Assembly (NCBI GenBank): GCA_049700455.1
Contig: JBNAVJ010000007.1
Coordinates: 70,397-94,396 of the forward strand
Source of the DNA: Ignavibacteria bacterium
Lineage (GTDB): Bacteria; Bacteroidota; Ignavibacteria; Tepidaquicellales; Tepidaquicellaceae
Direction: 5' to 3'
DNA: 24,000 nt
Made by a program: the position numbers and the translations under genes. The notes under the pieces were generated by a model that saw only the letters and a list, made by a program, of their open reading frames with translations, was not told where the DNA came from and ran no database searches. This document shows positions 4,762 to 21,752 of this stretch, one piece after another; the stretch's first letter is position 1, and each line of letters begins with the position of its first letter.

Positions 4762-5688
4762 TTATTTTCGTTTTATTCTTGAATAAAGTCCTATTGTAGG
4801 ATCGACAACAAACTTTAAAAGAACTTTAAGCCATGATTTATGATAGTAAAGTGAGTCATAATATTCAGGAGCAAGTTTTTTAAGTTTAGGCAACCTCGTT
4901 CGAGGTATACTCGGAAAATCATGATGTTCATTGTGATAACCAACATTAAATGTTAACTTATTGAGTGGCCCATAATATGAATATGTTTCCTGTTCATCGT
5001 AAAAGACATAATGTTCAGAAATAAAATGTCCTGCTAATGGGTGCAAGCTGCCTGCAATAAAATCACATACTATTAAGTAAACAATACCCTGCCACCCAAA
5101 CATTAAAACATATCCTACCATTACAAGCAACTGAAAGATAATGTTTATAATCTGCCATTTCTTCAATTTCAAAGGATACACGAACATAGGCCTGAAAGCA
5201 TAAAATAATATCTGAAAAACTGCCCAGAAAAATTTACCAATACTACCTCGAAACACTTTTACTTCCAGTTGTGAGGGAATATCAACATCTGTATTGTGTT
5301 TTCCCTGTTCTTTATGGTGTATCGTATGATAGAGTTTAAAGGACATTGCATATGGGAATACAATTGGAATGTTAGCAATTAATGCCAACCAATTATTATA
5401 AACCTGCTTTTTAAAAGCAAGATTATGAGTAATTTCATGAATTGCAAGAAATAGTACATGATTAATGGTAGCACCTATAAAATATGCATATAATATATAC
5501 CAGACAAAATTCAACTTCGGAATGATAAGAGACGATATGATTTGAACCACTACAAGAAAAATAGTTATAATAGCGAGTCTGATATCAGGACCGAATAATT
5601 TCCGTACTTCCGGATATTTACTCAAAATTTCCTGTCGTCGTTTACTATGCGGTTGTGGAATATTTGTCCAGAAAAAATCGCGTTTCAT
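4762..5688 (-). CDS. Sphingolipid delta-4 desaturase / dihydroceramide desaturase-like membrane desaturase (DEGS/Des1 family)
   Basis: 308-aa ORF with three histidine boxes: HEITHN, HTIHHKEQG and HNEHHDFP. The N-terminal block DFFWTNIPQPHSKRRQEILSKYPEVRKLFGPD matches the Lipid_DES N-terminal domain. By recollection the protein is collinear along its whole length with animal DEGS1 (e.g. ETYSYYGPLN.LTFNVGYHNEHHDFP..P...LP....APEYYD). The ATG lies 3 nt after the end of tRNA-Arg(ACG). Confidence 0.85.
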   Translation of the reverse strand: MKRDFFWTNIPQPHSKRRQEILSKYPEVRKLFGPDIRLAIITIFLVVVQIISSLIIPKLNFVWYILYAYFIGATINHVLFLAIHEITHNLAFKKQVYNNWLALIANIPIVFPYAMSFKLYHTIHHKEQGKHNTDVDIPSQLEVKVFRGSIGKFFWAVFQILFYAFRPMFVYPLKLKKWQIINIIFQLLVMVGYVLMFGWQGIVYLIVCDFIAGSLHPLAGHFISEHYVFYDEQETYSYYGPLNKLTFNVGYHNEHHDFPSIPRTRLPKLKKLAPEYYDSLYYHKSWLKVLLKFVVDPTIGLYSRIKRK

Positions 5689-17290: not shown

Positions 17291-17620
17291 TTAATAAGAT
17301 TCTCGATCATCAGAAAATCTTGCCACAATCTTTTCTCTTATAAATGCAGGTGAAGGAATACCTTCTGGATAGTAACGACAGGAGAGTGTTGGATATACCG
17401 GTGATTCTACCCCTATTAGGTCTTCATTATTTATTAACAAAGTAGGGGATCCTCTAAATTTATATTTGACCGCATCTTCCTGGTCTTTAATAAGCCGATA
17501 AATAACATCAATAAAATCTTCAAGCCCTTTAATAGCTTCTTTTAAATTATCCATCATAATCTGATAGTTAGGGCATCCTTCAAAATATTGAAATTCCACT
17601 TTTAGTTTTGGCTGTACCAT
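17291..17620 (-). CDS. Small thioredoxin-fold protein with a single-Cys C-P-N-Y active-site-like motif
   Basis: 109-aa ORF. The pattern is beta-strand + GCPNY (FQYFEGCPNYQIMMDNLKEAI), then F.GSPTLLINNEDL (cis-Pro-like SPT), then LSCRYYPEG.PS. This recurring Y..GCPN...GSPT...CR.Y arrangement is a small Trx-like family that I recall being vaguely or wrongly annotated. It is the last gene of the 4-gene operon, 18 nt after the previous stop. Confidence 0.5.
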   Translation of the reverse strand: MVQPKLKVEFQYFEGCPNYQIMMDNLKEAIKGLEDFIDVIYRLIKDQEDAVKYKFRGSPTLLINNEDLIGVESPVYPTLSCRYYPEGIPSPAFIREKIVARFSDDRESY

Positions 17621-17638
17621 ATATTTATTTTTATATTT

Positions 17639-18985
17639 TTACGGTTTATTAATGTCTGTTCTCCCTATCCAATTATAATCATCAAATGAACTAAAAAGTT
17701 CCTGAAATATCTTATAGTAATAATATTCCTCTTTTGAATTAATTTCCCATCCGTTTTTCAATACACGATTTTTTCTAAAATCTTCATCTTTAATTATCTC
17801 GTTACAGTAATATTCAAGTTTATTCTCAACTCCACTACCCTGCCACAATTTCTGCTTTGGTCGCTTAATAATATAGATTGGTAATATGTGTTTAAGGGTC
17901 TCTTTTAAAATCCATTTCTCGGTTTTATTCTTAATTTTAAGTTGAGGACTAATATTTTTTACATAATCTACTACTTCCCTGCATAAAAAAGGGACATAAG
18001 TTCTCACACCAAAAGCTGCCGAACATCTATCAACCCGTTGCAATGCGGTATTGTGTAAATTATAAAATATCAATTGAAGTTCTTTTTCTAACTTTTTGTA
18101 TGTAAGTTTCTGTAAGTAATAATATCCTGCAAAAAGTTCGTCAGCACCTTCACCAGAAAGGATTGCCTCAACATATTCAGCAGCCTTACGTACTGCAAGA
18201 TAATGTATCAGACTTGATCTTATAAGCCTCGCATCGAAAGACTCAAGGTGATAAATTACCTGAGGTAAAATCTTTACAACTTCATTAATTTCAGCTTTAA
18301 TTGGGTAATAAGTAATTTCAAACTCTTTTGCAAGTCTTTTACTATACTCCAGATCGCTTGCTCCAGCAAAACCGCACGAAAATCCATAAATTTTATCTGT
18401 AAATTTGCGAGCAAATGCTACTATTGTGCTTGAATCAAGTCCCCGCGATAATAAAATTCCTATTGGTTTTTCATTAGTAATACATTTCCTTATTGAATCT
18501 TCAAGCAAGCTATAGAGTCGGCTTTTTATCTGTTCAATATCTTCCTGGTTATATTTTAATGTCCTGAATATATCTAACAGCTTTTTAACTTTGCCCTTAA
18601 CAATTACCCCGCCCGGCGGGACGGGTCTAACATTTTTAACAAAGCCCATCAACCCTTTAACTTCAGACGCAAAATAAAGGTTATTTTCCTCATCATATCC
18701 AAAATATATGGGCACAACCCCAGCAAAGTCACGATTTAGATTAATCGTACCATCGATTTCTTCTGCTTTAGCATAATGTTCTCCGGGCAAGAGTTCATCA
18801 ATAACTTTATATTTGTTTGTTGGGTTTTCTCGAATGCTGTTTTCTGCCGTATTAACTGATACACCCAGTGTGGAGTGAGAAGTAGAAAATACTTCAATTT
18901 TGTTCCACCGATGTTTCATTTTGGTTAACATTGAACTAACAAGTTCTCCTCTATCAGGAAGTGAAACACCCGCTATTGCACCCAT
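17639..18985 (-). CDS. Asparagine-synthetase-B-family adenylating enzyme (beta-lactam-synthetase-like paralogue); glutaminase nucleophile absent
   Basis: 448-aa ORF. The C-terminal synthetase domain has a PP-loop region ILLSRGLDSST (canonical SGGLDSS), plus LSGEGADELFAGY and later blocks. The N-terminal Ntn domain is shortened. It begins MGAIAG instead of MCGIxG and keeps RDFAGVVPIYFGYDEENNLYFASEVKGL. The start lies 2 nt after the stop of the upstream gene. Confidence 0.8.
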   Translation of the reverse strand: MGAIAGVSLPDRGELVSSMLTKMKHRWNKIEVFSTSHSTLGVSVNTAENSIRENPTNKYKVIDELLPGEHYAKAEEIDGTINLNRDFAGVVPIYFGYDEENNLYFASEVKGLMGFVKNVRPVPPGGVIVKGKVKKLLDIFRTLKYNQEDIEQIKSRLYSLLEDSIRKCITNEKPIGILLSRGLDSSTIVAFARKFTDKIYGFSCGFAGASDLEYSKRLAKEFEITYYPIKAEINEVVKILPQVIYHLESFDARLIRSSLIHYLAVRKAAEYVEAILSGEGADELFAGYYYLQKLTYKKLEKELQLIFYNLHNTALQRVDRCSAAFGVRTYVPFLCREVVDYVKNISPQLKIKNKTEKWILKETLKHILPIYIIKRPKQKLWQGSGVENKLEYYCNEIIKDEDFRKNRVLKNGWEINSKEEYYYYKIFQELFSSFDDYNWIGRTDINKP

Positions 18986-18987
18986 AG

Positions 18988-20631
18988 TTATTTATTGATG
19001 ATTATTTGTTTAAGACGTTTTTCTTCAGAGAGTATTTCTCCTGTTTCAGGATCGATAGCGTACCAGGCACCATTGATAAGATTTGTTTTGATATTGCCAC
19101 ATAAATGTTCGTTGCCACGAAAATGTGGCGTGTCAAGTATACCTATTTTAATAGCATCAGCAAGAACCCCTGCATCAGTTAAGGGATCTTCAGCTCTTCC
19201 ATCTCCCAATTTTACAATAGCCTCAATTAAGGTCTCGGCTTCAGATATTAATTCATTTTTTCTATTTATTATTAATTTGTCATCTTTAATATCAGGTAGA
19301 TCTCTCGCAACATTTTTAATAACTCCATAAACAATATTGCAACTTTCTATAAGTTCCTCCGGATAAACAGCATGGTCGCCTTCACAATAAGCTACTACAT
19401 GTAATATGTGCGGTTTCAACCATAGACTTACCATTGCTGATGCTGCAAGTTGCCCCTTTGCGATTTCCGGATTCGGTGAAAAATGAGCGATTCCAGCTCT
19501 AACTTCTCTAAAAACTTCAAAATCATTACTGCTTAGTCGATTTATCATTTCATCCTTTGCCTTCATCTTAGCAAGGTCCATTCTTGGAGAAGTTCCTGGA
19601 GGAGTGTTAAACATATATTGTGAGACATAGTGTTTAACTCCCACTTTCTTTGCATTATAAGCAGCTATGTAAGCCATTGCAACAGCCAGCGAATCATGGG
19701 CATCTCTCAAACTCCACTGATGAGACTCATTAACTTCAACCGGAATTCTTCGTTCAGCATAATATTTCATTACTCGTTGGTTCTCAGAAATAGCTTCTTT
19801 AAGTAACCTCTCAGAACGTTTATCCATTACGCTATACCAGGTTAGAGGTATAGCAGCCCAGGCATTATTTATTGTTTCAATACTCATTTTCGCCCATTTC
19901 ATCAGGTCGTTTGTGCCACTATAGCATCTCATTAAAGGGAAATTTCCTGTTCGTGATTCTTCATAGATTCTCTTTAAATCCTCTGGTGTTCGTACAGGTA
20001 CTCCTCCAGCCCCATCAAGTTCCTTTCTCATCCGTTCAGGTTTGAAGAAAAATTCCTGTGCATTTTGATCAGTTCCAAGTGAAATTACATCAAGGACTTT
20101 TGCTTCAGCAATTTTTTTGACACCTTCTATTGTTTCTCTTAAAGAGGGTCTTCCAAAATGATGCCTTAAAATCGGGAGTGGATAGCGGTTGCGTATTCTT
20201 TCTACCAATGTTTGAGGATAAGTTTGACTGACATCTTTTCCAGTGGTGCCCCTAAGATATTCCCTTATAGAATCAATGCTTTCGGTTCCATCAAATACTT
20301 TCTCAAAGAAGGATTTTTTTCCTGCTACTTTTGCTACTGATGGCGTCCCTCCAAATATAAATTTAATATTGTTAATGCTTCTTTTCTTAACCTCCTTTAT
20401 CAATTCATCAAAGAGTGTTTCAGCAACTGAAGGAGTAAGGCGATAACTAATTGCTACAATTGCTGGTTGTAATTTTTCAACTTCTAAAACTAACCTACTA
20501 ACTTTCACAGCCGGACCAAGAGAGTACGTCCTAAAACCTTCTTCTTCAGCAATCGAAAGAAAATGATTTAAACCCCCTATATGGACACAGTTACCCAGTG
20601 CACATCCAAGTATTAGTTTGTTACCTTTCAT
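18988..20631 (-). CDS. Fusion protein: N-terminal cobalamin(B12)-binding domain + C-terminal glutamate-mutase epsilon (methylaspartate mutase E)-like barrel; putative B12-dependent carbon-skeleton mutase of unknown substrate
   Basis: 547-aa ORF. Residues 1-~130 match the MutS/GlmS B12-binding domain motif for motif and with almost the same spacing: xxHxxG (CVHIGG, His17), S-x-L (ISYRL, ~62) and GG (IFGGT, 94-95). In my recollection of Clostridium MutS these fall at His16, SSL 61-63 and GG 91-92. The remainder shows collinear blocks with GlmE: ILRHHFGRPSLRETIEGVKKI~QPRAGVALLDEHIELLRYL, VLDVISLGTDQNAQE~GADFLPSTIDAYTRQ and FPLMRCYSGTND~LPLQARHGTPD. There is no CxxxCxxC motif, so it is not a B12-radical-SAM enzyme. 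Confidence 0.6.
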   Translation of the reverse strand: MKGNKLILGCALGNCVHIGGLNHFLSIAEEEGFRTYSLGPAVKVSRLVLEVEKLQPAIVAISYRLTPSVAETLFDELIKEVKKRSINNIKFIFGGTPSVAKVAGKKSFFEKVFDGTESIDSIREYLRGTTGKDVSQTYPQTLVERIRNRYPLPILRHHFGRPSLRETIEGVKKIAEAKVLDVISLGTDQNAQEFFFKPERMRKELDGAGGVPVRTPEDLKRIYEESRTGNFPLMRCYSGTNDLMKWAKMSIETINNAWAAIPLTWYSVMDKRSERLLKEAISENQRVMKYYAERRIPVEVNESHQWSLRDAHDSLAVAMAYIAAYNAKKVGVKHYVSQYMFNTPPGTSPRMDLAKMKAKDEMINRLSSNDFEVFREVRAGIAHFSPNPEIAKGQLAASAMVSLWLKPHILHVVAYCEGDHAVYPEELIESCNIVYGVIKNVARDLPDIKDDKLIINRKNELISEAETLIEAIVKLGDGRAEDPLTDAGVLADAIKIGILDTPHFRGNEHLCGNIKTNLINGAWYAIDPETGEILSEEKRLKQIIINK

Positions 20632-20642
20632 TTTTGTATAAA

Positions 20643-21752
20643 TTATATTTCCCCAATAGCTAATAGCCTTAATTGTTTCAAACTCAATTTATTGATATTA
20701 AGTCTTTCCACTGTCCTGCCTTCTTTCCAATAATCAGTCTGAGTTAAACAGGATGCCAGATTAATTATAGAATCAATAATTGGTGTCTCAACATTAAACT
20801 TCCTCCCAACAGAAGAAATCGGTATCAAACTTGTCGGGACATCTTCCGTAATAAATCTCATATTTAACCTTGTAGGAGCTTTTATATCCCTATATCCTGG
20901 ATTTGCTTGCATTGCCTCGTATAAGTGTTCTCCTGCTGCATTATAAGCAAGATATAACCATTCCCGGGCTGTCAGAGCTCTAATACCAAGCGCCTCAGCA
21001 ACTTTGACTCTTTCTTCATCAATCTTTTCCAGGACTTTAGCAACAGACCTTGATACACCCTGAACATAAAATTGAAATTCAGCATCGTCTTCAATCCATC
21101 CTGCATTCAAGACGCACAAAGCAGGATGAAAAACAGCTCCAATATTATCAAAACTTGTTTTAAAAATATTATCACCCGCCACAAACTGAGGGTATGCAAT
21201 TCTGATTCTCTTTAGAACTTCAGGAATCAAATGCGCCCGAACAGAAGCAACAGGAATACTGTTTTTTATACGAAAAATCTTTGCTTGAGCAGGACCAATT
21301 ACGCGGGAAGCGTAAATAAATGTTTGTGCCTCAGCAACTATCACATTCCTGTCAACATTATGAGAATTTAACACTTGTTGAAATTCTAAAGCACCAAATG
21401 TTCTCCCTGGATTTAATATTATAATTTGTCCATCCTCTAAATAAGGATAACATAGCTCTGCAATATCTCGATGCCCCGTTGCAGGAACAGCAACCATTAT
21501 AATATCTACACCAGTAATAGCCTCCTCTATATTTGTTGTAGCAACAGGAATTTTACCAAAACCTTCAAGCCCAAAATCACTTTCAATTCTCACACCCCCC
21601 ATTGAAATTACACCCCACAACCGTTCACTGGTTCGGTTAAAAAGATGCACCTCAAACCCCATTAAAGCTATGTGACCTGCCATAGCTAACCCCCCATGCC
21701 CAGCACCTATAACAGCAAATTTAGGTTTCTTTTTTGATGAGACTCTCTCCAT
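20643..21752 (-). CDS. Opine dehydrogenase-family NAD(P)H oxidoreductase (octopine/nopaline DH family; N-(1-carboxyalkyl)-amino-acid forming)
   Basis: 369-aa ORF with an N-terminal Rossmann motif FAVIGAGHGGLAMAGHIALMG. By recollection it is collinear with Arthrobacter N-(1-D-carboxyethyl)-L-norvaline dehydrogenase: IIILNPG..GALEF, the conserved catalytic-region His in NIGAVFHPA, and the C-terminal block NPGYRDIKAP.RLN.RF..EDVPT.L.P.S..GR...V.TP.ID....L.S......D...EGRT.E.L. A strong SD GGGAGG lies 4 nt before the ATG. Confidence 0.85.
   Translation of the reverse strand: MERVSSKKKPKFAVIGAGHGGLAMAGHIALMGFEVHLFNRTSERLWGVISMGGVRIESDFGLEGFGKIPVATTNIEEAITGVDIIMVAVPATGHRDIAELCYPYLEDGQIIILNPGRTFGALEFQQVLNSHNVDRNVIVAEAQTFIYASRVIGPAQAKIFRIKNSIPVASVRAHLIPEVLKRIRIAYPQFVAGDNIFKTSFDNIGAVFHPALCVLNAGWIEDDAEFQFYVQGVSRSVAKVLEKIDEERVKVAEALGIRALTAREWLYLAYNAAGEHLYEAMQANPGYRDIKAPTRLNMRFITEDVPTSLIPISSVGRKFNVETPIIDSIINLASCLTQTDYWKEGRTVERLNINKLSLKQLRLLAIGEI

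Follow-up and report, generated by a model that had tools for sequence, protein, structure and literature searches.

A putative single-chain adenosylcobalamin isomerase with cysteine in its cobalamin-ligand motif, encoded in a conserved opine dehydrogenase and AsnB-like gene context of Ignavibacteria

Glutamate mutase (EC 5.4.99.1; PDB 1CB7, 1CCW, 1I9C, and 6H9E), which served as our reference, consists of two subunits, namely the cobalamin (B12)-binding sigma subunit GlmS/MutS and the barrel-forming epsilon subunit GlmE/MutE. The other class I adenosylcobalamin (AdoCbl) isomerases, such as KamDE, OraSE, methylmalonyl-CoA mutase, 2-hydroxyisobutyryl-CoA mutase (HCM), and IcmF, have the same layout of a triosephosphate isomerase (TIM) barrel and a Rossmann B12 domain. 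To our knowledge, about a dozen reactions of AdoCbl-dependent isomerases have been described, and new ones are rare. In a 24,000-nt stretch of an Ignavibacteria bacterium assembly (contig JBNAVJ010000007.1, positions 70,397 to 94,396; hereafter, the window), an open reading frame (ORF) at positions 18988 to 20631 was analyzed, which had been described from the DNA letters as a single-chain fusion of a glutamate-mutase-like enzyme (hereafter, the original prediction).

The product of this ORF is a natural single chain, in which a sigma-like B12 domain is followed by an epsilon-like barrel; the coordinates given in the original prediction were exact, and both domains were detected. The 547-aa protein was 100% identical to the product on record for an Ignavibacteria metagenome-assembled genome (MAG) (P0001). 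Its features were as follows.

18988..20631, minus strand: ORF for the fused B12 domain and GlmE-like barrel, 547 aa, ATG start (ORF call, identical protein on record, and AlphaFold2 [AF2] model)
20248..20631, minus strand: Rossmann-type B12-binding domain, N-terminal, residues 1 to ~128 (PF02310, PDB matches, and Foldseek)
20572..20595, minus strand: variant lower-ligand motif G13-N-C15-V-H17-I-G-G20, translated as GNCVHIGG, with Cys at the Asp position of DxHxxG
20179..20247, minus strand: interdomain linker, residues 129–151, ~25 residues (AF2 per-residue confidence and translation)
18991..20178, minus strand: GlmE-like TIM-barrel domain, residues 152–547 (Foldseek, hhalign, and conservation table)

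Compared with glutamate mutase, the 547-aa protein has a similar Rossmann B12 module of ~130 residues and a TIM barrel that resembles GlmE more closely than any other solved structure. Collinear blocks were found in the two barrels (GGAD/LD, STID/GTD, GFPG/GVPV, NLPL/NFPL, and HGTPD/SGTND for GlmE and the 547-aa protein, respectively), the counterpart of GlmE Glu330 is kept, and relatives are fused to a MutL/GlmL accessory domain. It differs in being one chain of sigma then epsilon instead of two subunits, in having Cys in place of Asp14 of the DxHxxG motif, in lacking ~59 N-terminal residues of GlmE, and in its sequence identity of ~15%. Its partner genes encode an opine dehydrogenase and an AsnB-like enzyme, in contrast to the methylaspartate ammonia-lyase that usually accompanies glutamate mutase. 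Methylmalonyl-CoA mutase, OraE, and IcmF are also single-chain fusions, but their B12 domain is C-terminal, whereas it is N-terminal here; no CoA- or PLP-binding signature was detected in the 547-aa protein, and the Foldseek scores of the other class I isomerases were clearly weaker than that of GlmE. In the predicted structure, the class I AdoCbl isomerase architecture (barrel, Rossmann domain, and conserved His ligand) is present. We favor the explanation, with a probability of roughly 55%, that the protein is an AdoCbl-dependent carbon-skeleton isomerase that belongs to a three-enzyme module and does not have free glutamate as its substrate, for which both the chemistry and the substrate are predicted from homology and gene context.

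For the B12-binding domain, PF02310 was the sole Pfam family in the 547-aa protein (residues 11–97, E = 1.8e-7, 31.5 bits with a cut-off of 32.1), and it was matched by 54 of the 68 full-length members aligned for the motif, conservation, and Pfam counts (best E = 6e-14). The N-terminal domain matched the PDB sequences of corrinoid proteins (4jgi, E = 5e-6; 1y80, E = 1.6e-4; and also 7xcn), and it matched 1y80 in Foldseek with a TM score of 0.82 and an rmsd of 2.2 over 124 columns. The family profile searched against the PDB sequences retrieved the small subunits of B12 mutases (2yxb, HcmB 4r3u_C, and MutS 1be1) and also KamE and OraE; the match to 1be1_A covered positions 4–97 versus 2–93 with E = 0.0016, and only B12 domains and no GlmE chain were found in this search. 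A B12 domain is present in the 547-aa protein beyond chance.

The GlmS sequence, which was checked against PDB 1cb7_A (one mismatch), carries the motifs D14-C15-H16-A-V-G19, S61-x-L63, and G91-G92, and the corresponding motifs of the 547-aa protein are C15-V16-H17-I-G-G20, S62..L65, and G94-G95, which bears out the earlier claim that its His, SxL, and GG motifs lie near the MutS residue numbers. When the comparison is anchored on the His, the Asp position of DxHxxG is occupied by Cys15, and the Asp–His pair is incomplete. The replacement of this Asp by Cys (GNCVHIGG, residues 13–20), as the original prediction had it, was observed in all 45 members of the protein's own clade (the CxH clade), and Asp was present in all 17 members of a sister clade; H17 and G20 were invariant in both. 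The Cys thus defines the clade as a fixed replacement and is not the result of drift. The second option in the original prediction, that the neighboring Asn represents the Asp one residue out of register, was not upheld, because position 14 varies freely among the relatives (N, D, S, E, Q, T, G, or P) and Asn14 is thus no stand-in for Asp.

The CxH clade reaches down to ~37% identity and takes in MutL-fused members. The Asp-containing sister clade (600–635 aa; P0161/P0272 and P0212) has the same architecture and shares the invariant barrel residues, and it differs by a DAHTLG or DPHTxG motif (D-x-H-T-x-G) and a longer interdomain region. Two relatives, P0135 (549 aa, 41% identical) and P0150 (516 aa, 37% identical), have neither Cys/Asp nor His in this region (GDPKYTNE and GDGPRTGA, respectively) and could be family members that work without cobalamin or that bind it His-off.

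For the barrel, the AF2 model was built from the 68-sequence alignment (pLDDT 94.1 and pTM 0.84), and a model built from the single sequence (pLDDT 36.6) was discarded. Residues 131–136, inside the linker, were the only low-confidence stretch. When the AF2 model was compared with the PDB by Foldseek, a check that had been proposed with the original prediction, GlmE was the best solved fold (6h9e_B, E = 4e-16; 1cb7_B, E = 1.2e-15; TM scores of 0.59/0.66 over ~440 columns). It was followed by KamD, OraE, methylmalonyl-CoA mutase, HCM, and IcmF (E = 1e-10 to 1e-6). The barrel-length matches among the top hits were all AdoCbl isomerases, and the short matches were B12 domains.

The GlmE sequence used to build the GlmE alignment for hhalign was 100% identical to 1cb7_B. 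In the hhalign comparison with the family alignment, query residues 152–528 were aligned to GlmE residues 60–432 in 343 collinear columns (E = 1.2e-4). The collinear GlmE-like blocks claimed for the ~400-aa C-terminal region were thereby recovered, weakly at the sequence level, and so was the claimed absence of the first ~60 GlmE residues, as the ~59 residues before GlmE 60 have no counterpart. A narrow GlmE hidden Markov model (HMM) searched against the family produced weak C-terminal matches in the Asp clade only. Met_asp_mut_E (PF06368) was detected in nine of the 68 aligned relatives at E ≤ 0.1 and was the only recurrent family besides B12-binding; the sole relative to exceed its gathering score of 26.6 was P0137 (27.5 bits over residues 153–517), which is fused to a GSH-S/RimK ATP-grasp domain, and P0126 reached 25.1 bits.

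A MutL/GlmL domain (PF13941, E down to 2e-82) forms the C-terminus of three relatives (P0152, P0155, and P0158). In clostridia, the gene for GlmL, an accessory or reactivase-type protein, lies between glmS and glmE, and the fusion of this domain to relatives of the 547-aa protein fits radical-enzyme reactivation. The CxH motif was seen in P0152 and P0155, and the N-terminal motif was not seen in P0158. The gene for P0152 (1226 aa, locus L007 3908–7588), with both the CxH motif and the MutL/GlmL fusion, lies after two oligopeptide-type ABC ATPase genes and an AAT-family gene (acyl-CoA:6-APA acyltransferase, peptidase C45-like), which is a context unlike the opine dehydrogenase cassette.

The substrate pocket was compared with that of GlmE, in which Arg66, Arg100, Arg149, Glu171, and Tyr181 are the substrate-binding residues (1CCW/1I9C literature) and Glu330 holds the adenosyl ribose. 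In the hhalign alignment, Arg66 and Arg100 are aligned to His158 and Gln192, respectively, in agreement with the His and Gln named in the original prediction, at the low confidence of this alignment; a conserved R156 lies two residues upstream of His158. Arg149 is aligned to Tyr237, with a conserved R235 two residues upstream, so that the earlier pairing of the Arg in the ARHG block of GlmE with that of MRCYSG is approximate only: an Arg is nearby, and the aligned residue itself is Tyr. The Glu171/Tyr181 loop was unaligned, and Lys326 is aligned to Val413. Glu330 is aligned to the nearly invariant Glu417, and this mapping was obtained by two independent routes, hhalign and the GlmE-profile hmmsearch through the Asp clade; E417 is kept in 45 of 45 CxH-clade and 16 of 17 Asp-clade members. 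The barrel residues invariant in both clades are R156, H158, D181, S184, Q192, R/K235, Y237, W265, D270, R272, E299, N301, R309, D313, Q338, K355, R378, H411, and E417. From these alignments, the barrel pocket looks related to that of glutamate mutase without being the same, and a pocket with several arginines is as expected for a carboxylate substrate. Of the different substrate or chemistry suggested in the original prediction, another substrate is plausible because the arginine claw is not kept at the aligned positions and the gene accompanies an opine dehydrogenase and not a methylaspartate ammonia-lyase.

The tight, conserved three-gene context is the strongest functional clue. The genes next to the mutase-like gene in the window were as follows.

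20643..21752, minus strand: CENDH-like opine dehydrogenase, 369 aa, upstream partner (Octopine_DH, E = 3e-45; 1bg6)
17639..18985, minus strand: AsnB-like amide synthetase, 448 aa, downstream partner (Asn_synthase, E = 5e-55; 1ct9, E = 5e-47)
17291..17620, minus strand: small ORF, 109 aa, tightly packed after the AsnB-like gene (NF049942, 51.9 bits with a cut-off of 70)

The opine dehydrogenase gene ends 11 nt before the start codon of the mutase-like gene. Its product was aligned end to end with 1bg6, the Arthrobacter N-(1-D-carboxyethyl)-L-norvaline dehydrogenase (CENDH; E = 4.8e-74), and the catalytic His, Arg, and Asp columns of CENDH are conserved. The AsnB-like gene starts 2 nt after the mutase-like gene; its product scored 286 bits with the NCBIfam AsnB model (cut-off of 499), has a shortened N-terminal domain, and starts with MGAIAG, and the AsnB-like protein of the window therefore lacks the Cys nucleophile. 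The 109-aa ORF resembles a DF-family (seleno)protein and was absent next to the cassette in the related loci described below; it is followed by an MFS transporter gene in the minus-strand run.

Relatives were found in at least 535 loci of a one-genome-per-species collection, and the neighborhoods were counted in the 80 best of these loci, of which 78 had room upstream. All 78 of these carry the opine dehydrogenase gene (56–82% identity) immediately upstream of the mutase-like gene and in the same orientation. The mutase-like gene is immediately followed by the AsnB-like gene in most loci (63 of 80 when the ORFs were clustered). Most AsnB-like copies have the form found in the window, with ~445 aa, an M-[A/S/G]-G-I-A-G start, and no glutaminase Cys. 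A 493-aa form with the normal MCGI start was found in eight or nine loci of Ignavibacteria, Kapaibacterium, and Chlorobi, and this glutaminase start in some of the partners suggests ammonia as the nucleophile. In the loci with the 493-aa form (L017–L020, L039, L048, L061, and L082), the detected similarity starts ~400 nt downstream of the mutase gene. ORF clustering in the 80 loci revealed no other conserved neighbor (no adenosyltransferase, reactivase, transporter, or regulator), MutL and methylaspartate ammonia-lyase were not recurrent in these loci, and no cobalamin riboswitch or other Rfam element was found near the operon.

Among more distant relatives, the opine dehydrogenase gene is still upstream at 47% identity, and the trio is kept in a different gene order at 43% identity (L092: AsnS-like, mutase, and opine dehydrogenase). 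The sister clade provides a second, independent association of a mutase-like protein with an opine dehydrogenase and an amide ligase, the locus of P0272 (620 aa, Rikenellaceae; L004/L005/L006 7001–8863). This is a capsule/polysaccharide locus with ATP-grasp ligases in place of AsnB (one context), and the neighbors of P0272 encode two ATP-grasp ligases (one PylC-like), an aldo-keto reductase, PGA_cap, Octopine_DH, and a DegT aminotransferase.

Under the favored explanation, the 547-aa protein would bind AdoCbl in the base-off/His-on form, and homolysis of the Co–C bond would initiate a radical 1,2-rearrangement of the carbon skeleton of the glutamate mutase type. More tentatively, Cys15 probably substitutes for Asp as the hydrogen-bond partner of the ligand His, which would alter cofactor tuning or redox sensitivity. 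Equally tentatively, the substrate may be not free L-glutamate but an amino-(poly)carboxylate related to it, for which an N-(carboxyalkyl) amino acid is one possibility, and it might be the compound made or consumed by the upstream CENDH-like opine dehydrogenase. One carboxylate might then be amidated with ammonia by the downstream AsnB-like enzyme, and the three genes might suffice as a module for the biosynthesis of a small amino-acid derivative that is branched and amidated. The fixed pairing with the opine dehydrogenase suggests that the mutase-like gene probably marks an unrecognized B12-dependent pathway. A narrower proposal, that the family is an unrecognized class of AdoCbl carbon-skeleton mutase with a Cys–His dyad, an opine-type N-(carboxyalkyl) amino acid or its amino-acid precursor as the substrate, and the opine dehydrogenase as an obligate partner, is possible, and we regard it as doubtful at present.

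We considered whether the protein is instead a true fused glutamate mutase, the product of which, 3-methylaspartate, would be amidated by the AsnB-like enzyme and condensed with a keto acid by the opine dehydrogenase. GlmE as the best structural match and the detection of Met_asp_mut_E in relatives speak for such an enzyme, and the downstream enzyme is closest to AsnB, the substrate of which is aspartate. R156 and R235, each located two residues before the positions aligned to R66 and R149, could still point into the barrel. However, R66, R100, and R149 are not kept at the aligned positions, the E171/Y181 region is unaligned, the identity to GlmE is as low as given above, and no methylaspartate ammonia-lyase gene is nearby. 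Coupling of glutamate mutase to an opine dehydrogenase was not found in the literature search, which was of incomplete coverage, and the search for glutamate mutase or cobalamin together with opine dehydrogenase or asparagine synthetase retrieved nothing relevant. We therefore consider a fused glutamate mutase to be unlikely.

A corrinoid-dependent methyl- or alkyltransferase with Co(I)/methyl-Co(III) chemistry, in which the barrel is the transferase module, would agree with the best sequence matches of residues 4–115, which were to MtgC, MttC, MtaC, and other corrinoid proteins (4JGI, 1Y80, and 7XCN), with the NCBI label "methionine synthase" on some members, and with the many invariant His and Cys of the barrel, which could bind zinc. 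The 547-aa protein differs from these corrinoid proteins in having no helical cap and no partner methyltransferase, its scores are an order of magnitude below the cut-offs of the respective models (29.7 versus 370), and the remainder of its chain is a mutase-type barrel. No methyltransferase, pterin-binding, homocysteine-binding, or activation domain was found in Pfam and NCBIfam, and no methyltransferase barrel was among the first 50 Foldseek hits, in which methionine synthase (8ssd_A) matched by its cobalamin domain only; the MutL/GlmL fusion of relatives fits radical-enzyme reactivation instead. A methyl- or alkyltransferase is thus quite improbable. The loss of Asp, the additional loss of His in P0135 and P0150, and the PF02310 score just under the gathering threshold would also be explained by a degenerate B12 domain in a protein that is an enzyme without need of cobalamin or that serves in regulation or sensing. 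However, two clades and hundreds of species show hardly any variation at H17, G20, S62, and G95 or in the remainder of the domain, and this near-invariance argues for a functional cofactor site. Cys15 is invariant and not drifting, and the counterpart of GlmE Glu330, presumably the ribose-binding residue, is kept. Degeneration of the domain is highly improbable.

Several observations weigh against the favored reading of the 547-aa protein as an AdoCbl-dependent isomerase. Of the two Pfam families proposed for checking the original prediction, PF02310 was found as described above, and Met_asp_mut_E gave no match at E ≤ 1 in the 547-aa protein itself. The hhalign probability to GlmE was just 55% at an identity of ~15%, and the residue mapping of the substrate pocket depends on this alignment, which lies in the twilight zone and has low confidence. 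The Asp of the His–Asp pair is missing, a literature search of incomplete coverage retrieved no B12 enzyme with CxHxxG, which is absence of evidence only, and the best sequence scores of the N-terminal domain were to corrinoid proteins of methyltransferase systems. The many invariant His, Cys, Asp, and Glu residues of the barrel could instead form a metal site. Neither an adenosyltransferase nor a reactivase nor a B12 riboswitch was found in the window, ~15% of the loci have no adjoining AsnB-like gene, and one relative with 46% identity stands alone. The proposed sequence of the three steps and the proposed substrate are conjectural.

The family is large. More than 6,500 database clusters (90% identity) matched the protein, the best 120 of which were 61–100% identical over the full length, and a scan of 1.84 billion representatives identified 695 related clusters. 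The family is 60–90% conserved across phyla, and its carriers are mostly MAGs of Ignavibacteriota, Bacteroidales/Rikenellaceae/Lentimicrobiaceae, Acidobacteriota, and Aminicenantes, with cultured Rosettibacter species among them. An earlier functional assignment, which would have made the original prediction redundant, was found neither in the literature nor in NCBIfam: NCBIfam has no model for the family, and the literature search, with incomplete coverage and hence as absence of evidence only, retrieved nothing on the family or on any pairing between a B12 enzyme and an opine dehydrogenase.

Members are named "methionine synthase," "methylmalonyl-CoA mutase cobalamin-binding subunit," or "cobalamin-dependent protein" in the public records, and the domain content does not support the first two names. 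None of the methionine synthase domains (homocysteine-binding, pterin-binding, B12 cap, and AdoMet-activation) was detected by Pfam, which returned PF02310 only, and the MetH chains in the PDB matched the family profile only at positions ~7–66 with E around 1e-3. The NCBIfam models for corrinoid proteins (MtgC/TIGR02370 class) scored 29.7 and 22.3 with cut-offs of 370 and 215, respectively, and covered the Rossmann half only. Judged by its sequences, the family would be better described as AdoCbl isomerase-like with a new architecture order and a new ligand motif.

A conserved family of this size with no assigned function implies that B12 use is probably underestimated in these bacteria, most of which are uncultured and known from MAGs. 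With its invariant Cys at the position of the Asp that tunes the cobalt-ligand His, the family offers a natural experiment on a textbook motif, and its constant association with opine dehydrogenase and asparagine-synthetase-like genes points to a small molecule that has not yet been described. If the narrower proposal given above is true, the cassette would represent a new three-enzyme B12 pathway, and hundreds of species of Ignavibacteriota, Bacteroidota, Acidobacteriota, and other phyla, mostly uncultured and MAG-derived, would possess it.

Some further ideas about the cassette were considered and set aside. One idea was that the Cys-less AsnB-like enzyme cyclizes a rearranged opine in the manner of a beta-lactam synthetase, and it was weakened by the versions with the MCGI start, which imply ammonia as the nucleophile. 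Apparent opine-dehydrogenase::mutase fusions (P0141 and P0194; loci L093 1–1589 and L094 4281–7016) were probably assembly errors or pseudogenes, because the frame changes within the genes, and they were not used as evidence.

Lineage-specific genes were also observed beside the cassette. Convergent to the cassette, L001 (11114–14198) and 11 other Bacteroidales loci like it encode an AA_permease-family transporter of ~740 aa and an MscS-type mechanosensitive channel, and this lineage-specific synteny could point to osmoregulation; a compatible-solute role was rejected, as the AA_permease/MscS neighborhood in these 12 loci was its only basis and was insufficient. In L092 (9885–13214), two HGD-D subunits and a BcrAD/BadFG activator, which constitute a 2-hydroxyacyl-CoA dehydratase system, are encoded convergent to the cassette, and they may hint at glutamate or 2-hydroxyglutarate metabolism or be coincidental. 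Elsewhere in the window, a bacterial gene at 4762–5688 on the minus strand combines the Lipid_DES (sphingolipid delta-4 desaturase N-terminal) and FA_desaturase domains, and its domain content suggests that this Ignavibacteria genome encodes a desaturase for sphingolipids or ceramides.

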